The notes: a model not told the origin generated them from the letters alone. A stretch of DNA of 64,000 nt from Podospora anserina (GCA_017654855.1 CM030335.1:1736001-1800000); one strand, 5' to 3'; counted from the stretch's first letter, positions 22,567-60,201 are shown. Made by a program: numbers and translations.

Positions 22567-24012
22567 TCACTGGCTATTCCTCCCCTTCCAATGAACCTCC
22601 ACCCCCTCCCAGCTATGCTTATTATACCCCCCCTGCACCTTCCTACACCTCCTCAACCCCCACTCCGTCACGCCCACCATCAAACAGCTCTCAAACATAA
22701 ACGCGCAGCTCCCCTCCCCAACCTTCTGCGGCTTCAGCTCAGCCTCCCTAGCCCCCTCATAACTATCCCTATCCGGCCCATGCCCACTCATAATATTATG
22801 CAAACTCGCTCCCCCGGGTACAAACCCCCCTTTCCCGCCCTTCTTCGCATCATAACCCCCCTGAATCAACCCCATAAACTCGCTCATCGTATTCCTATGA
22901 TACCACGGCGGCCTAAACGTATCCTCCCCCACCAACCACCTCGGCGGGAAAATCACAAAGTCCGCCACCGCCGTCCCCACCTTCTCACTCGGCGCCGTCA
23001 ACACGGTGAAAATACTCGGATCGGGATGATCATAGCTAATCGTCCCAATGGTATTAAACCTCCCAAGGTCATACTTGAAAGGGTAGTAGTTCCCATGCCA
23101 AGCCACCACATCAAACGGACTATGCCTCTGCACCGTCTCATAGAGCCCATTATTAAACTTGACCTTGATCCTCCACTCATTCTTTCCCTCTTGCGCCGTA
23201 GCACCATAATCCTCCTCAAAGTCCGCCTTGGGCGCCTGAAAGTCCCTCGCATTCGCAAGACCGTTTGATCCAATCGGTCCCAGCTCAGGAAGTTGGAAAT
23301 GTCCCTGATACAGCTCCAACGCGTACCCCCTCGCCTTTTTGCCATCCCCCACAATCTCGACCCTGTACTTCACCCCCCTAGGCAAAACCGCAATCTCCAT
23401 CGGCCTAACCAGCATCCTCCCAAACTCAGTCCTAACATCTAACCCCCCCTCCTGCGGAACCAACAACAAGTCCCCATCAGCAGAATAATACGCCTCCTTC
23501 TCCTTCATATCCCGTCCGCAAGCATAGACATAAATGCCAATCCCTTGCTTGAGCGTTGGATCCCCCGCCCCGGCAACCAGTTTCAACCCATCGACAAAAT
23601 CATGCTCGGCGTGCTCGTCATGGTCAAAAGGGTCCCAACGGAGTTGGTTAGGGATGTAATGCTTCTTCTCATGCTGCGTCTCCACCGCTTCGTTGTGGGC
23701 AGTCACCGGCTCGAACGGCGGGTGAGCGCACGAAGGCAGGATGCGGTACAGCCACGTCTGCTTGTTTTCATGCCGGGGCGCGGTGAAGGCTGTGCCCGAG
23801 AGCTTTTCGGCGTACAAGCCGAGAGGTGGTTTCTGGGGGGAGTTTTGGGCGAGGGGGAGGGCGCAGGGGTGGGCTTCGCTTCTGTTGACGCACAAGTCAG
23901 TCAGCCAATCTCAAAAGATGAGGGGAAGCAAAGGAGAGACAAACTGGTGATAAGAGTCAAACCCAACCAGGTACTCGTACTTCTCCGGGATGGAGAAGTT
24001 TGTGACTGGCAT
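22567..24012 (-). CDS. hmgA: Homogentisate 1,2-dioxygenase
   Basis: [77 protein letters not shown] motifs. Exon 1 is 24012-23945 ([14 protein letters not shown]..), intron 23944-23882. Confidence 0.95.
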
Positions 24013-27292: not shown

Positions 27293-29498
27293 TCAAACAT
27301 GCCCTACATCCTCTTTTCTGGGTATTACCGGCAACAGCAGATAGTTCGCATACTGCTTCGAAATATGGACGTAATTTGTGCCTTGGAAGATATCCGGAGA
27401 TCTGCCGCTTATTAGCAATCAGCTGTCATCAAGCCCCGCAAGAAAACCAAACATCCATACCTGTCCACAGCATCATTGTGTAAGAATATCCCAGACCCCT
27501 GGGTATCCCCCGACGCCACCTCCAAAGCCAAGCTCTCCCCTTCTTGAAGAACAACGCAAGTCGGCCACATCTCCACGTCAACAGCGTAGACCTCGCCTTG
27601 AATCACGGGGAGTACATCCCTGCTGGTGTAATCCCGATGCGGCAGCCACGGCTGATGCTTTGGGTGTTTCTCGTTGACCTTTCTCAGTGATACCCTGAGC
27701 CACCCCTTGGTCAAAGGCACAGGATCGCCCGCCGTGCCCGTGTAAAAGATCTCCTTGCCATCCTTGCCAATATGGCGAAGCGTCAGGAACAAGTCGATAT
27801 CCGACGGCGTTGGTCCGCCCACATCAGGGGAGACAGAAACGTTGAGATGGGCGACAATGTGCCCTGTAATCTCCATCTCTTGCCCTGGACCCATGTCAGA
27901 AGGGACAGTCTTGAACGTCAGCCCCTGAAATTCATCAATCGTCCCCAAGGCCCGATATCCCAGCTTTTTTTGCCCCCCTTCGTGAACCCAGTTGTCCATT
28001 CTGGTCATGGCCATGTCCCCTGAAAGATAAAACCTCGCATACTCCGTCCTCTCAATCGGCCACTCCTCCTCCTCTCTCCTCTCAAACGTGTCCCTCTCCC
28101 GCTGGGCATCATTAACGCCCGCATCCCCTTTCCGTATCACCAAATCAACCCTCGCCCTCCTCCCATCAGTCCAACCCCCTCCATCCTCCCCCTTGAGAAA
28201 CGCATCCAAAAAGCTCCTCTGCACCTCCACCTCCTCATCATAATAAAACGGCAGGTCATGCCTCCCGGTGATCATCCTCAAAAACTTCTTTTCGCTCCCC
28301 GCATGTAGATACCCCTGTATGTTCCCCCTCAAATGCAGCAAAATCCCACCCCAGTTTCCAACGCTCAAAACCGGGACGGTAATATCCCCCATATCGTACT
28401 CCTTTTCCCGATAGTACCCCTCATCCCGGTACCTGTTCTCTCGGTTATCAACCGTCTGATCCCTCCTCTCCCTCTCCAACTCCCCCTTTTCCTTCTCCCC
28501 ATTTTCATCCGCCGTCTTCCCCCCCCTTCTGTTCGCGAGTCCGTACTGGTTACCAACAACCTGCCTCTCCCACCACCACCTGACAAACCCATCACTGTAT
28601 ATCCCCCCGTGCCGGCACCGGTCACGGTAGTAATCGCTCATTCCCTCCCACGGGATAATGGCTGCTAAACCTGTCGGTTGGCGGGCAGCTACTCGCCATT
28701 GGGAGCCGGCGTAGTAAGACACGCCTAGCAAGCCTACCTTTCCCGTGGACCAGGGCTGGGACGAGGCCCAGGTTATCAGGGTGACGAAGGCTTCCGAGGT
28801 GGAGCGGGACATTGTATCCAGAAAGCCGGGGGACTGCCCTGTTCCGAGCTCGTCCGCGCGGAGGAGGGCGTAGGAGTGGGCGGTCCAGAATGAGGGGTCG
28901 GGGGTTTCCTGGGGAAAGGAGGTTTGTGAATCAGGGGCTGGGATCAAGGAAGGGCGGCAGGGGGGAGGGGGGATGGGAGAAGGCTTACCCAGCAAGAGTG
29001 AACGGATTTGTGGGCTGGGTTGACTTCGGAGAAGGATTTGGGGTTGAACCTGTAGATAGTACGGGTGGTTAGCCGAGAATCATGCCTGGATGAACTTGGT
29101 CATGGCCCGGACCGGGTTTTATCCCACCTCTGACGAAGCGAAACAATACCAGGTGGTTTTTTCCCGATAGGGAATCACAATCGATATGACCATCGCTGGT
29201 GCGGGGCAACTCACTCGCTATAGGAAATATCCTTCCCGTATGGGCCGTAGGTTACCAACACCGGGACGGGGTTCGTGTCGGAGTCGTGAGGGCGGTAGAT
29301 GTTGCACCGAATCAGGCCGGGGCCAGTGGCCAGGCCGGACACGGGGACGGATACATTCTTGGAAAGGATGTAGGGGAAGGAGGTGCGGTCGTGGGTTGTG
29401 ACGTCGGGGAGGGAGCTGTAATCGCGGTGTTGGGTGGCCGAAGTGGACTTGCCTTCGGTGCCGGAGTGGTTGTCTGGCTTGGGGGCGGTAAGGGTCAT
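27293..29498 (-). CDS. CocE/NonD family alpha/beta hydrolase (peptidase S15, X-Pro dipeptidyl-peptidase-like)
   Basis: PVLVTYGPYGKD, WETPDP, GKVGLLGVSYYAGSQW nucleophile elbow, NWGG..LHLRGN, GDPVPLTKGWLRVSLR; introns ~29214-29050, ~28988-28909, ~27460-27402. Confidence 0.9.
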
Positions 29499-35396: not shown

Positions 35397-38300
35397 GGCC
35401 CAATGATGGCACAACAGGACCCCTGTCTTTGCTCTTGGCACGGCATTGACAGCCCTGTTTCTGAGGGCCAAGGGGAAGCCAGGACGGTACACCCGACGCA
35501 TGGGCTTTCCCTTCCTGGCCGCAACTCGGGTTACTGTACCAGGTTTTCGGAGTTGTTTTCTTTGAGGGGGGGTGGCTGAGGACGTGGGTTCGTTGTCGGG
35601 CTCGCTTCGCCCCGCGTAGGTCATCCTCCTGGGTCCCTGGAGCCCACATTTCCATTTCTTTCTGCCCTCATGATGATGAGGTGGGCAAGCTCCTTTGCAG
35701 ACGCGGGGGAGTACTGTTGCACGTGCTGAGGGCAGATTTTCACCCATCGTTCTGTAGCGCTTTGCCGGCGCGAGGAAACGACTGTGTGCGTGGAAAGGCT
35801 TGTTGTGTTCTCATACTGAGACGCGATCAAGGAGCCTAACTGGGTGGCAATCAGGCACGCGCTCGGGGGCATCATCAAGTTCGTTCGCCGGAGCACTCTC
35901 TGGTTCGCTTGAGGGAGCGTTGAACTCGGAGATCATTTCGAAACTCGGTTTTCCCTCGACCTTGCGAGCGCAGTACAGTGTGTATCAGACGGGTTGGAAG
36001 ATCTTCACCCCGGATGGACTCTCGTCTGTTGGCTGGTGGTCAATGGGTGGACAACACCATCAAGATCGCCACATGCATGGTGTTTTGCGTCTCGGGCCTA
36101 TCACTAGCGCGGAGGTTAAGACTGAGGACGAAATCGCTTGCTTGACGATGTCGGCTGGCTTTCCGAGATCTGTCTCGCGCCTGTCAAGGTTTGTTGGGGT
36201 GTTTTTCTTTCTCTTCCCATTCCCCCTTCCCCGAGAGTTGTTGCGGTGTTGCTTTTCTTTCTCTATTTCCCCGTTGTTGTTGCCAGTTGGGCTTGGTGTT
36301 TCTTTTTCTTTTTTGTCGGTTGTTGTTGGGGTGTTTCTTTTCATTCGGGCCCCTGTTGGCAGTTGGTGTTGTCGGTTGGGGTTTCACTCTATCTGCCCCT
36401 ATTCAGTTGGTGTTGTCAGTCGGGGTGTTGTTGGGGGTGTTCCTTTACCTGCCTTCTGGCCCAATGATGACACGACATTCTGCTCTGCAAACGCAACAAT
36501 CTGTCTATCCTGAGGGCTTCTCCTGGAACAGAGGAGTCTTTTTTCTCAGTCTTCTGCATCTGGATTTGGCGATGGATGTTGCTGGGGTGGTCCTTTTTTC
36601 CCCTGCTGTTTTTCAGTTTTTCTTTTCTCTGGTCGATGATGAGAATGTCTGCCACTGACTAGACTTCTGAGACCCTCTTTTCTTTCTACTTCTTTTGTTT
36701 TCTTTCCTCTCCTTTTCAGCCTTTTTTCCTGTCTTTTCCAACCGTTTTCTTGTCTTGTCTTTTCCTTTCACACACCTCCGGTTTTTGCCTTTCCCCTTAT
36801 TTGGCCTGTGACATATATGTTAGTCAAGAGGCTGACAGACTTCTGAGGCTTACTTCCTTCTTTCTTTCTTTTCTTTCTGGTTTTTTCCGCTTCTCTTTTG
36901 CCTTGCTTTTCTATCTTGCTTCTTATTTTCTTTTCTATTTCCCTTTTCTGCCCCTGCGGTTTTGCATTTCCTTCACTGCTGCCCGTGATGAATATGTCGG
37001 CCAAACGGCTGGGACATCTGAGGCTCCGTTTCTTTTTTCTTTTGTTTTTTCTGTTTTCCTTTTCGCTTTTCCTTCTGTTTTGCCCTTTTTTTTTCCTCTC
37101 TTTTCTTACCTTTTTCTCCCTTCATTTTTATCTCCTTTTCTTTCACTTTTTATTCCCGCTTTTATTCTGTTTTCTTTTCTTGTTTTCTTTCCAGTTTTTC
37201 CCTCATTTTTCTCTTCAGTTCCTGCATTTTCATCATCATATAGCCCATGATGAGTTTGTCAGCAACGGCTAGACATTTGAGGCTCTTTCTTTTCTCACCT
37301 ACTCTCCCCTCTTAGATTTTTTTATGCCTGTTCCAGGCTACTTTTCTTACGTTATATTTTTCCATGAACTACTGAAGCTCAACACCGACGCTCAACAAGA
37401 CCAATGATGAAAGTGTCTCGCCGAGACTCTGAGGTTTTTCACTTTTCTCTGTGGGACCTGGGGGATCACTTTGGCTGCCTGCTTGTTTTTTTCTCTAGGC
37501 AAGTCCAATTCTTCGTCTTTTTCTCAGACTGGCTTTTGTCAGTGACGTTCGACTGTGAGATATGGCACCGATGACAATGGCAGACCTATACAGGGCTTGG
37601 CTTGCTAGTCTGAGGTCTTGCGCAGTTGCCCGACATACAGGGCGTACGGATTTGAAGAATACACGTGGGGTTGGTGGTGGACATCAGGACCATTTTTCTT
37701 TCTCATGTCCGCTTTTGTTTCCTTTTCTACTTTTTCTTCCCTACCCTTCGTTGCCTTGTTTCAATCGTTCTTCACCTCTTTTCCCTTTACTTTTATCCTT
37801 TTCCTCCCCTGTTCGCATTTCTCTGCTCTTTTTACCTTTCTCTGCCGTCTTTACTTTTCTCTTTCCCGTTCCCCGTTTTATCTTACAACATCACACCTCT
37901 TTCATGCGTCTTAGCGCAGGCATTTTCACCCAAACACGAAGAGTTTCACAGACCGATGATGACATATGCACACACATCCCTCCCGTCGTTTCGTTTCTCG
38001 CGGGAGAGAGACCTGTTTATTTTCTCGAAGGTCTAGTGCCACACACAGTTTGAGGTCATCATTTTCGCCTGGTCGTTTCTCACGTTTGGAGAGGGCTTCG
38101 TCAAACAACCACACTTTTGCTTCTACCTTTATTTGTCTTTTTTTCCCTTCATTTCTGCTGTCCTTACCCTTCTTTTTCACATTTTCTTTTCTACACTATC
38201 CTTCCCTCTTGTCCTTCTTTAGGCTTTCACAAAGTTTTTCTCCTTTTGACACCGAAACTATCAGAGACCAATGATGATAATCACCCCCGCATTGCTTTTC

Positions 38301-38770
38301 TTTTCTCACGCGGGAGTGAGACCTGTCTTGTTTTCTTCCACAGATCGAGTATTCCAAGTCTGAGGTCTTTATCGTTTTTTCTTTCTCAAGTTGTGCTTTT
38401 TGAGGGCTCTTGGGGGCACGCTTCTCTTGTTTTGTGGCTGGACAGACACCTGTAGTTGCAGTCATTTTCCCCGTCAACACGAAACTATCACAGACCAATG
38501 ATGACACCTACACGCATCCCTCCCGTTGTTTTCTTTCTCTCACGGGAGGGTGACCTGTTGTTTCTTTTCTCACAGGCCAAGCATCAAAGTCTGAGGTCTG
38601 AGGCTTTTCACTCTGGGGGATAAATTTGTGTAGTATTCTTTTTTCTTTTCATGCAACAAGACCTGTGATGACAATCACACACCCATCCCCCACCTCTCGT
38701 GGGTGGCAGGGAAGGAAAGACCTGGGGATATTGGTCCCGATAGGTCGAGTGTTATACAAGTTCTGAGGTC
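35397..38770 (+). ncRNA. Array of ~13 stem-closed box C/D (kink-turn) modules in pyrimidine-rich spacers
   Basis: Units at 35397-35469, 35661-35736, 36458-36518, 36631-36674, 36803-36850, 36981-37024, 37242-37284, 37398-37437, 37566-37617, 37951-38057, 38266-38367, 38493-38598 and 38660-38770. Each is stem-NN-(R)TGATGA...(C/T)TGA-complementary stem; the C box is degenerate in three. Confidence 0.75.
35760..36190 (+). ncRNA. Unidentified ~420-nt multibranch structured RNA domain
   Basis: Nested complementary pairs: GGCGCGAG 35767/CTCGCGCC 36174, GGAAAG 35792/CTTTCC 36159, GAGACGCG 35818/TGCGTCTC 36086, GCGCTCG/CGAGCGC, CAGACG/CGTCTG, AACACCAT/ATGGTGTT. Confidence 0.55.
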
Positions 38771-39091
38771 ATTGGTGTTACGAAGGGGTGTTTGTGGGGA
38801 TCTGGGAAGAGTCTGGGGGTTGCTGTGGGGATCAAGGTGGTTTTGGATGGTGGTTTACAGATAGAGAGTGTGTCGATGGAGGTAGCTTGGAAGAATGGTG
38901 TTCAATACGCGTATCTATATTGTCTTGTTCATCTAAAAGTATAAGAAACCAGATATTGGTCTAGCTTACATACATCAAGACATCTGTCAGAAACATTCCT
39001 CCGTTGTGCTCAGTCACTGTCCGCAACACCGATCCTCCGGAGTCATAACAAACCAACAATCACGCTACCTCTGAACCGTCAACCTCCCCTT

Positions 39092-41971: not shown

Positions 41972-42373
41972 GGTCTGTGGCTGTAAGAAGAGAGGGACAG
42001 AGCATGTGGGGTTGAACAGAAGGGCGCTGGGTTAGGGGTCCCCGAACTGGTCATCCACTGCACAACATTTTGTTTCAATAGCATCATCCTTGCTGAAAGC
42101 ATTTCTCCACCGAAATAATTCTGCATTAGCTCAATTTCCATCAAACATGCAAATTATCAATAGTTCTGCCACCGCCGATAGGCACCTCCGATCCCCGCCC
42201 CGGACCCCTCCGGGAGCCGCCGAGAATCCTTGGCGCGCCCTCGGCCATCGCCGTCACCGGCCCCGGAGAGCCCAACACGGCGATCGATAAAAGGACACCG
42301 GTGCTCAACAACAGATCACATCATCACCCAACACCACAACATCCAACCACACAACAACATCATCACCACCACC

Positions 42374-43048
42374 ATGCCCACCAACACCAACACCCCCCCG
42401 AACCCGCACCCCCCCTCAACTCTCCTCACCACCCTCCTCACCCTCACCGAGTCCACCATAATCCCCCTCACCACCACCGGCGTCTCCTCCGGCTCAAAAC
42501 TCTTCGGCGCCTCCATCCTCTCCCGCGACACCCTGTCCCCCATAACAACAGCCACAAACAACGAAGCCCTCTCCCCCCTCCTCCACGGCGAAATAAACTG
42601 CATCCAGCAATTCTTCACCACCATCCCCCCCTCCTCCCGCCCCTCCCCTTCTTCCTGCATCTTTTTCGCCACACACGAGCCCTGCTCCCTCTGTCTGTCT
42701 GGAATCACCTGGGCTGGGTTCAACGAGTTCTACTATTTGTTCACCTACGAGGACTCAAGAGACGCGTTCAATATCCCGTATGACATTGACATTCTGGAGG
42801 AGGTGTTCAAAGTAAGGGGAGAAAATGAGGGGGAGGGTGAGTTTAAGAGGAGGGGGTTGTATAACAAGAATAACAAGTTCTTCAAGAGCAAGAGTCTAGG
42901 GGAGCTGATCGAGGAGGTGGAGGATGGGAAGGAGAGGGAGTACTTCAGGGGGGAGGTCAAGAGGCTAAAGGGGTTATATGACGCGCTCAGTGAGACGTAC
43001 CAGAAGGGCAAGGCGGAGGGTGTGGGGAGTGAGAGTGTTTGGAAGTAA
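42374..43048 (+). CDS. Cytidine/deoxycytidylate deaminase-like zinc enzyme (guanine deaminase-like)
   Basis: GSKLFGASIL, SPLLHGEINCI and THEPCSLC zinc-binding motifs; likely start MPTNT at 42374. Confidence 0.9.
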   Translation: MPTNTNTPPNPHPPSTLLTTLLTLTESTIIPLTTTGVSSGSKLFGASILSRDTLSPITTATNNEALSPLLHGEINCIQQFFTTIPPSSRPSPSSCIFFATHEPCSLCLSGITWAGFNEFYYLFTYEDSRDAFNIPYDIDILEEVFKVRGENEGEGEFKRRGLYNKNNKFFKSKSLGELIEEVEDGKEREYFRGEVKRLKGLYDALSETYQKGKAEGVGSESVWK

Positions 43049-60119: not shown

Positions 60120-60201
60120 CGACGTGGGCCTGATTCGAACAGACGCTCCCGAAGGAACAAGATTTCTAGTCTTGCGCGTTAGACCACTCCGCCACCACGC
60201 C
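60120..60201 (-). tRNA. tRNA-Ser(AGA), intronless
   Basis: GGCGTGG acceptor/CCACGTC+G, D arm TGGCGGAGTGGTCTAA, anticodon stem CAAGA-CTAGAAA-TCTTG, long variable arm, GTTCGAAT T loop, downstream T run. Confidence 0.95.

Follow-up and report, generated by a model that had tools for sequence, protein, structure and literature searches.

Four paralogous box C/D-type RNA units with a two-hairpin interior, probably orphan small nucleolar RNAs, in Podospora anserina

In yeast, the SNR78-SNR72 cluster encodes seven different conserved guides of ribosomal RNA (rRNA) methylation, arranged as a non-intronic, same-strand box C/D array with spacers of ~100–300 nt and released from one precursor by Rnt1 at AGNN-capped stems. 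The mammalian SNORD116 and SNORD115 arrays are composed of tandem, diverging C/D RNAs carried on a long non-coding transcript and have no rRNA target; their copies are intronic, number in the tens and have kept their C′/D′ boxes. In U14, with its Y-domain stem, and in snR4/snR45/SNORD13, a terminal C/D kink-turn is combined with internal stem(s) instead of canonical C′/D′ boxes; these RNAs of ~100–190 nt are products of single-copy genes and have conserved, often bipartite complementarity to 18S rRNA. Here we describe four C/D-type units on the + strand of a 64,000-nt (64-kb) stretch of Podospora anserina DNA (GCA_017654855.1 CM030335.1:1736001-1800000; referred to as the window, from whose first letter all positions are counted), which are probably lineage-specific, orphan box C/D small nucleolar RNA (snoRNA) paralogs.

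Same-strand units with short spacers, the arrangement of a yeast-type cluster, are found at this locus (9 script matches plus 2 weaker units within 36458-38771), and the array would share with SNR78-SNR72 a non-intronic layout and a single precursor. The units differ from the yeast cluster in being paralogs, in having no complementarity to the rRNAs of other fungi that served as surrogates, and in having no AGNN stems between them. They have no sequence relation to SNORD116/SNORD115, the Rfam match to SNORD116 (E = 6.3) being noise. They resemble U14 and snR4/snR45/SNORD13 in the structured interior that replaces the C′/D′ pair; unlike acetylation guides, they are multi-copy and score no higher than shuffled controls in a bipartite rRNA search. 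Both the SNR78-SNR72 cluster and snR4/snR45 are mentioned in PMC5824354, the latter as orphans.

In Neurospora crassa, C/D snoRNA clusters on non-coding transcripts are the norm (PMC2780460). The two species have in common their order, the Sordariales, a non-coding locus with several C/D RNAs on one strand, and similar unit sizes, the N. crassa snoRNAs being 70–137 nt in size. Each N. crassa snoRNA occupies its own intron with canonical splice signals and, with few exceptions, has an rRNA target and a homologue in yeast, whereas the Podospora array is without splice signals, without targets in the surrogate rRNAs, and made up of two tandem paralog families. N. crassa snoRNA genes are mostly singletons, which the authors credit to repeat-induced point mutation acting on duplications longer than ~400 bp (PMC2780460). 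Little has been catalogued of the snoRNAs of filamentous fungi, and only 13–15 snoRNAs, all identified by homology, are given in the P. anserina genome paper (PMC2441463). The four units would constitute a new family within a well-known RNA class, which is not extraordinary; tandem orphan paralogs together with guide-less mini units are unusual for Sordariales. If the proposed identity is true, the locus allows the birth and divergence of snoRNA genes to be observed in a fungus with repeat-induced point mutation, for which opportunities are rare, and its units are candidates for the short list of orphan C/D RNAs in fungi. In Podospora, a genetically tractable fungus, the function of these RNAs could be tested by a deletion of <1 kb.

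Four units with a common architecture

Letter-by-letter segmentation places the units at 37951-38057, 38266-38367, 38493-38598 and 38660-38770 (units 1 to 4; 102–111 nt), and the positions, + strand and motifs given in a first-pass annotation of this DNA are correct for all of them. The architecture it had proposed, GACC-N-RTGATGA, an A/C-rich linker, hairpin 1, hairpin 2 and AGT(T)-YTGA-GGTC, is likewise common to all four. GACC is followed by one variable base and the C box, which is ATGATGA in three units and GTGATGA in unit 4. Behind the C box of each unit, an A/C-rich linker of 3–14 nt leads to hairpin 1 (~10 bp), in which a TCCCTCCCG-type 5′ arm faces a CGGGAG-type 3′ arm and to which unit 4 adds an inner CCACC/GGTGG stem, and then to hairpin 2 (7 bp), in which GACCTG(T/G) faces a (A)CAGGTC-like arm. 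An unpaired segment of 12–16 nt, ending in AGT(T) and here called the pre-D segment, abuts box D in 4/4 units. The D box is CTGA in three units and TTGA in unit 1, where a G·U pair with box C is still possible. Box geometry is constant: one base separates the 5′ stem strand from the C box, and none separates the D box from the 3′ strand. The terminal GACC/GGTC stem is present in every copy and can be extended to 6 bp in unit 3 and to 7 bp in unit 2 (AGAGACC/GGTCTTT).

Unit 1 (107 nt, 37951..38057) consists of the stem strand GACC (37951-54), the C box ATGATGA (37956-62), the linker (37963-76), the arms of hairpin 1 (37977-86/38000-09) and hairpin 2 (38010-16/38027-33), the pre-D segment (38034-49), the D box TTGA (38050-53) and the stem strand GGTC (38054-57). 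The same parts of unit 2 (102 nt, 38266..38367) are the stem at 38266-69, C box at 38271-77, linker at 38278-80, hairpin 1 at 38281-90/38310-19, hairpin 2 at 38320-26/38340-46, pre-D segment at 38347-59, D box CTGA at 38360-63 and stem at 38364-67. Unit 3 (106 nt, 38493..38598) has its stem at 38493-96, C box at 38498-504, linker at 38505-16, hairpin 1 at 38517-26/38542-51, hairpin 2 at 38552-58/38572-78, pre-D segment at 38579-90, D box at 38591-94 and stem at 38595-98. Unit 4 (111 nt, 38660..38770), the most diverged copy, comprises the stem (38660-63), C box GTGATGA (38665-71), linker (38672-82), hairpin 1 with its extra inner stem and a CA bulge (38683-95/38701-15), an AAA junction (38716-18), hairpin 2 with an inner GGGA/TCCC stem (38719-25/38740-46), the pre-D segment (38747-62), the D box (38763-66) and the stem (38767-70).

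Conservation is distributed unevenly over these parts. As a mean of pairwise comparisons per segment among the four copies, in our own segmentation, identity is 1.00 for both strands of the terminal stem, 0.93 for the C box and 0.88 for the D box; the 5′ arm of hairpin 2 reaches 0.93 and its 3′ arm 0.67. Lower values were obtained for the arms of hairpin 1 (0.64–0.68), the pre-D segment (0.62, with a common GAGT...AAGT frame), the hairpin-2 loop (0.60), the hairpin-1 loop (0.47) and the linker (0.44). What defines a C/D kink-turn has been retained, and the other parts have drifted. Because of this pattern, which is the strongest internal argument, all four copies appear to be under selection as C/D RNAs now or to have been so recently. 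The reading that we favour, with a probability of roughly 0.6 as judged from sequence, is that the four units are genuine box C/D snoRNA genes, lineage-specific paralogs derived by local tandem duplication within a non-intronic array, and of an orphan single-guide type.

The first-pass annotation had described the units as paralogous C/D RNAs, which fits all the sequence tests, and had argued that stems kept while loops diverge imply selection on structure, which is supported only in part, by hairpin 1 and not by hairpin 2. When hairpin 1 is written in a ten-pair register, units 1–3 each pair at 9/10 positions, and two positions show compensatory or stepwise change (C·A / A-T / C-G and T·G / C-G / T-A); covariation among four sequences has little statistical power, and these pair counts carry no statistical claim. 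Unit 4 keeps the outer stem of hairpin 1 and has a different, bulged inner stem. Hairpin 2 combines an invariant GACCTG 5′ arm with three one-sided mismatches; these affect the 3′ arm in units 2 and 3, and units 1 and 4 have weak inner pairs. An invariant arm without compensation opposite it therefore suggests that GACCTG may have a sequence-specific role and not be maintained by pairing alone. The pair tables are those of our own segmentation; MAFFT with RNAalifold misaligned hairpin 1. Simple divergence of the loops is not what we observe, since all six loops of units 1–3 are pyrimidine-rich, spacer-like and contain TTTCT; only unit 4 departs from this, with short and different loops. When the interiors were folded separately, those of units 1, 3 and 4 had the same two hairpins as their minimum-energy structure, and unit 2, whose folded segment was cut short, gave hairpin 1 only. 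Folding z-scores of the interiors range from -1.2 to -3.6, the best being that of unit 3 (-3.64).

Differences among strains were collected over 5001 compared bases from runs of one species label and amount to 7 substitutions and 3 indels. Three of the substitutions fall within the region of the four units, at 38019 (hairpin-2 loop of unit 1), 38248 (spacer before the unit 2 leader) and 38295 (hairpin-1 loop of unit 2). Their placement in loops and a spacer is consistent with constraint, and would arise by chance alone in about 4 of 10 cases.

Within the window, the units are confined to this locus. For GACCNRTGATGA, 0.07 matches would be expected in the window; 5 are present, all of them on the + strand within 37399-38671, and 0/100 shuffles reached this number. 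The fifth match belongs to a neighbouring mini unit at 37399. A covariance model (CM) built from the four copies, and run without filters on both strands of the window, scored units 1 to 4 at 112.2, 104.6, 109.5 and 103.9 bits. Far below them, at 17.6 bits (E 0.06), came the mini unit at 37398-37439, and whatever else appeared among the 27 rows at E ≤10 was noise. BLAST with short words detected short patches common to units 1–3 and nothing elsewhere in the window. Tandem repetition and short inverted ends (GACC/GGTC) are also what a mobile or satellite-type repeat (a miniature inverted-repeat transposable element or a short interspersed nuclear element) carrying chance C/D-like words might show. 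We hold this origin to be very improbable: the ‘inverted repeat’ is only 4 bp long, no target-site duplications were seen, neither BLAST nor the CM found copies outside the array in the window, and conservation is concentrated on the C/D boxes and stems and not spread over the unit.

A leader, ACAC(C)GAA...TCA(C/G)A, had been noted before three of the units, and we find it directly 5′ of GACC in units 1–3; unit 4 is without it, and a fourth copy stands 5′ of the mini unit at 37399. The consensus of these four is ACAC(C)GA..., ~8 nt, CA(C/G/A)A and then GACC. The leader of unit 1 (37934..37950, +) reads ACACGAA..TTTCACA and is similar to that of unit 3 back to 37921; those of unit 2 (38249..38265, +) and unit 3 (38477..38492, +) read ACACCGAAACTATCAGA and ACACGAAACTATCACA, respectively. 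Over 25 nt of leader plus C box, units 2 and 3 have 96% identity, the highest conservation between any two copies. No obvious leader-trailer stem was found beyond the extension of the terminal stem to 6–7 bp in units 3 and 2. The leader may act in processing, may belong to a lengthened terminal stem, or may simply have been copied along with the duplication unit. It was also compared with the Homol-D promoter box, which has an invariant AGTCAC core (PMC4138321); this core is absent from the leaders, and the candidate was rejected.

Family assignment and target searches

Membership in a known snoRNA family, which the first-pass annotation had named as an outcome that would speak against its proposal, was not detected in Rfam 15. 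At gathering thresholds a scan of the whole window gave no match in the array or in 35800-39000, and permissive scans (37300-39000 and 35800-37700) returned only unrelated C/D families at E 1.1–8.5. The best sub-threshold matches scored 14.6–18.4 bits (E 4–8.5) against cut-offs of 35–55 bits, and upstream units of the array had E ≥1.1. The reported lack of C′/D′ boxes was also upheld, as no CTGA or TGATGA-like pair is present in any of the four interiors; a GA that precedes hairpin 2 in all units and a GAGT that follows it in 2/4 are the sole hint of such boxes. C′/D′ boxes are often degenerate in eukaryotes, and for this reason their lack does not exclude the C/D class. A pattern scan of metagenomes for homologues gave one match, on a bacterial contig with a protein-coding look, and was judged to be chance. 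Strings of 17–20 nt from the units had no full-text match in the literature, a result that does not cover the supplementary snoRNA sequences of PMC2780460 and PMC5824354 and is limited in what it says about novelty. Nothing relevant on orphan or tandem C/D snoRNAs in Sordariomycetes was found among the literature matches listed.

Targets were sought in surrogate rRNAs, obtained from fungal-type rDNA that contaminates bacterial assemblies. These were found with a primer-derived motif, and the small-subunit (SSU), 5.8S and large-subunit (LSU) rRNAs were delimited with Rfam; the surrogate LSU is ~97% covered, with a gap of ~95 nt between two loci. A search of five more contaminated assemblies for the LSU gap gave only bacterial-type 23S matches. 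Such contamination is a property of public assemblies: at least 62 contigs of bacterial or archaeal assemblies carry eukaryotic, mostly fungal-type rDNA, and one contig (G001:C45) is a chimera in which rDNA is joined to ~145 nt of bacterial-looking coding sequence.

In an ungapped antisense search with 40 shuffles per unit, the best duplex scores were 15.5 for unit 2 and 12.5 for each of units 1, 3 and 4, against mean maxima of 12.9–13.3 and top scores of 15.5–16.5 in the shuffles. In none of units 1–4 did the best match to the surrogate SSU, 5.8S and most of the LSU lie in the pre-D segment beside box D. The earlier statement that no rRNA guide could be recognised thus holds for units 1–4, as tested against surrogate fungal rRNAs only. 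A bipartite search on the model of the acetylation guides gave best scores of 13.0–15.5 against shuffle means of 14.1–14.9 and maxima of 16–17.5. Since the pre-D segment varies from copy to copy and has no pairing partner in the surrogate rRNAs, we describe the units as being of an orphan single-guide type; by the tests that were possible, they would be orphans.

Several candidate pairings were examined and set aside. Bipartite matches of units 2 and 4 that share an arm site at 1249-1256 of one surrogate SSU (L041) scored 13.0–13.5, below shuffle means of 14.1–14.8. The 5′ arm of hairpin 1 in units 1 and 3 can pair with a conserved LSU stretch (12 nt with G·U) and has no adjoining D′ box; the same holds for GACCTGTT... 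against an SSU stretch (7–11 nt).

The search method can detect a guide-like match, because one was obtained with the first unit of the surrounding array (~60 nt, 36458..36519, +), the sole array unit for which this was the case. In this unit, a 13-nt stretch immediately 5′ of box D pairs, apart from one mismatch by the predicted target position, with a conserved part of the SSU. The score of 13.0 compares with a shuffle mean-maximum of 11.6 (top 13.5), and the match is no more than suggestive.

These searches bear on the view that units 1–4 are ordinary 2′-O-methylation guides for rRNA, small nuclear RNA (snRNA) or transfer RNA (tRNA), in which each pre-D segment directs Nop1 to a different site (an expansion segment, an external or internal transcribed spacer, U6/U2 or a tRNA). 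We consider this unlikely, though the geometry speaks for it: an unpaired segment of this length abutting box D in 4/4 units is that of a D guide, and its variation between copies is what target switching predicts. Targets of this kind have a precedent in N. crassa, where some C/D RNAs are predicted to act on snRNAs and tRNAs (PMC2780460), and ~95 nt of LSU, all spacers and all snRNAs were outside the search. Set against this are duplex scores within the shuffle range, with no best match in a pre-D segment, and pre-D segments that are still alike within their common frame, which is more in line with drift than with four separate guides.

A search for targets elsewhere in the window, on both strands, revealed nothing clear. 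The 3′ arm of hairpin 1 in unit 4, with the junction (38683-38718), shows a 22-nt complementarity to 36967-36988, where the mini unit near 36985 has its leader and C box. This pairing scores 18.0 against 17.5 for the top of 10 shuffles, and could be chance or intra-precursor pairing.

The surrounding array and its transcription

As an addition to the earlier description, the four units do not stand alone but close, at the 3′ side, an array that begins near 36458. The whole array (36458..38771, +), delimited by a script scan and by reading of the sequence, comprises ~11 box C/D-like units on the same strand. The script looked for a C box and a D box together with a terminal stem of ≥4 bp, and of its 22 loose matches on the + strand of the window, 9 lie within 36464-38766; two weaker units, with a C box at 36985-36991 and a degenerate form at 37560-37622, were recognised by reading. 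Between the array units lie spacers of 59–328 nt, whose sense strand is rich in pyrimidines (C+T 0.59–0.88).

Four mini C/D units of ~45 nt, recognised by reading (the script found 3/4), follow the first array unit on the + strand at 36630-36676, 36803-36851, ~36981-37025 and 37242-37286. They are paralogs of one another and have a common layout of C box, a 12–17-nt segment, a CTGA/CTGG/CTAG element, 5–8 nt and D box; their Rfam matches are only at E >1. A fifth mini unit (37398..37438, +) shares the leader type and the AGACCAATGATGA start of units 2 and 3, has one short hairpin only between its C box and D box, and is the sole non-training CM match with E <0.1. The five mini units (36630-37438), at about 41–57 nt, leave almost no space in which a guide could fit, and none belongs to an Rfam family. 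The degenerate unit (37560..37622, +) has an AGACC...CTGAGGTCT 3′ half and an imperfect C box, and was missed by both the script and the CM. Relic D-box-plus-stem words, TGAGGGCT-like, are present in the trailers of units 1–3 (38060-38100, 38385-38400 and 38595-38606), with a doubled CTGAGGTCTGAGGCT after unit 3. These relics suggest decayed units of a second (GGCC...GGC) type, interleaved with the long units.

Splice signals are rare. Donor-like hexamers number 10 in 35600-39000, with none in the spacers upstream of units 1–4 and two (38316 and 38699) inside units 2 and 4; branch-like motifs number 3 in the same interval, with none after 36831. This rarity argues against a layout with one snoRNA per intron of a spliced non-coding host gene, as in the N. 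crassa clusters. Such a layout is familiar from that fungus, in which 45/55 C/D snoRNAs are intron-encoded (PMC2780460), and the pyrimidine-rich tracts, often ending in CAG, resemble 3′ splice regions. We give it little credence here, also in view of contigs from four runs, whose status as RNA is only guessed, that are colinear on the array with no joint listed (for example single contigs over 35870-38657 and 37662-38772). Colinear contigs are compatible with a long unspliced precursor; they carry no RNA ends and are a weak hint.

Under the favoured reading of orphan snoRNA paralogs, the array would be transcribed as a single long non-coding precursor. Snu13, Nop58, Nop56 and the methyltransferase Nop1 would assemble on each kink-turn, in which boxes C and D are brought together by the GACC/GGTC stem. 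Nucleases would cut within the U/C-rich spacers, and trimming would stop where the bound proteins protect the RNA, so that products of ~102–111 nt remain. The two hairpins would take the place of the usual D′-guide/D′/C′ region, so that only the 12–16 nt before box D, in the position and of the length of a D-box guide, are predicted to be single-stranded. Targets, if any, would be non-rRNA or species-specific.

Several results weigh against this reading. The C′/D′ boxes are absent from all four interiors, the D box of unit 1 is TTGA and not CTGA, and hairpin 2, as described above, has one-sided mismatches in place of compensatory change in the four copies. Folding z-scores of whole units are unremarkable, at -0.4 to -1.9 (-1.85 for unit 4). 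AGNN-capped Rnt1-type stems (≥5 bp) occur 3 times in 35870-38900 against 0.75 expected, with a maximum of 4 in 200 shuffles; they do not lie between units, one is inside a mini unit, and there is no one-per-spacer placement. The orphan status was assigned with rRNAs from other fungi that have the ~95-nt LSU gap, in a search confined to SSU, 5.8S and LSU rRNA.

A different account of the array assumes no function in trans. The units would then be cis-acting kink-turn modules of a long non-coding RNA, whose snoRNP (snoRNA-protein particle) caps protect or shape U/C-rich transcript pieces as in sno-lncRNAs (snoRNA-capped long non-coding RNAs), or buffer core snoRNP proteins; or they would be slowly decaying duplicates. 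The ungapped and bipartite searches of surrogate rRNAs that gave no target, the five adjacent ~45-nt mini units with essentially no guide space, spacers of up to 0.88 C+T, the relic D-box-plus-stem fragments in the trailers and the long colinear contigs, RNA status guessed, are all in keeping with it. The interior, however, is conserved far past the needs of a bare kink-turn (0.93 for the 5′ arm of hairpin 2, and compensatory changes in hairpin 1), and simple erosion would have hit the boxes in at least some copies. We regard this account as quite unlikely.

More speculative, and with a small chance of being right, is a reading of the locus as a dedicated source of C/D particles that lack a guide, comparable in a fungus to the orphan arrays of mammals; its products would act as regulators and not as guides of rRNA methylation. 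Two rapidly duplicating families, ~45-nt mini kink-turn hairpins and ~105-nt RNAs locked in two hairpins around an invariant GACCUG, would have originated in a lineage in which repeat-induced point mutation normally keeps snoRNA genes single-copy. Such particles could buffer or titrate core snoRNP proteins, cap U/C-rich spacer RNAs like sno-lncRNAs, or bind a non-rRNA partner, which could be contacted via GACCUG and the variable pre-D segment.

Flanking tracts and neighbouring genes

The array is flanked at 36181-36457 and 38775-38870 by G/T-rich tracts with repeated GTTGTTGGGGTGTT-like words, and a strand asymmetry is apparent between these flanks and the C/T-rich array spacers (up to 0.88). 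The G+C content of the window is 0.517; that of the P. anserina genome (35.5–36 Mb) is 52% (PMC2441463).

A tRNA gene at 60120-60201 (-), with 52.9 bits, is the sole gathering-level Rfam match in the window. Three exon-sized open reading frames have Pfam matches and are ordinary fungal genes. That at 27412-28812 (-) belongs to the X-Pro dipeptidyl-peptidase (S15) family, and that at 42230-43048 (+) has a cytidine/dCMP deaminase-like domain. The third, at 22567-23508 (-), matches homogentisate 1,2-dioxygenase; this fragment is 100% identical to a Podospora comata protein, and its next relatives are from other Sordariales.

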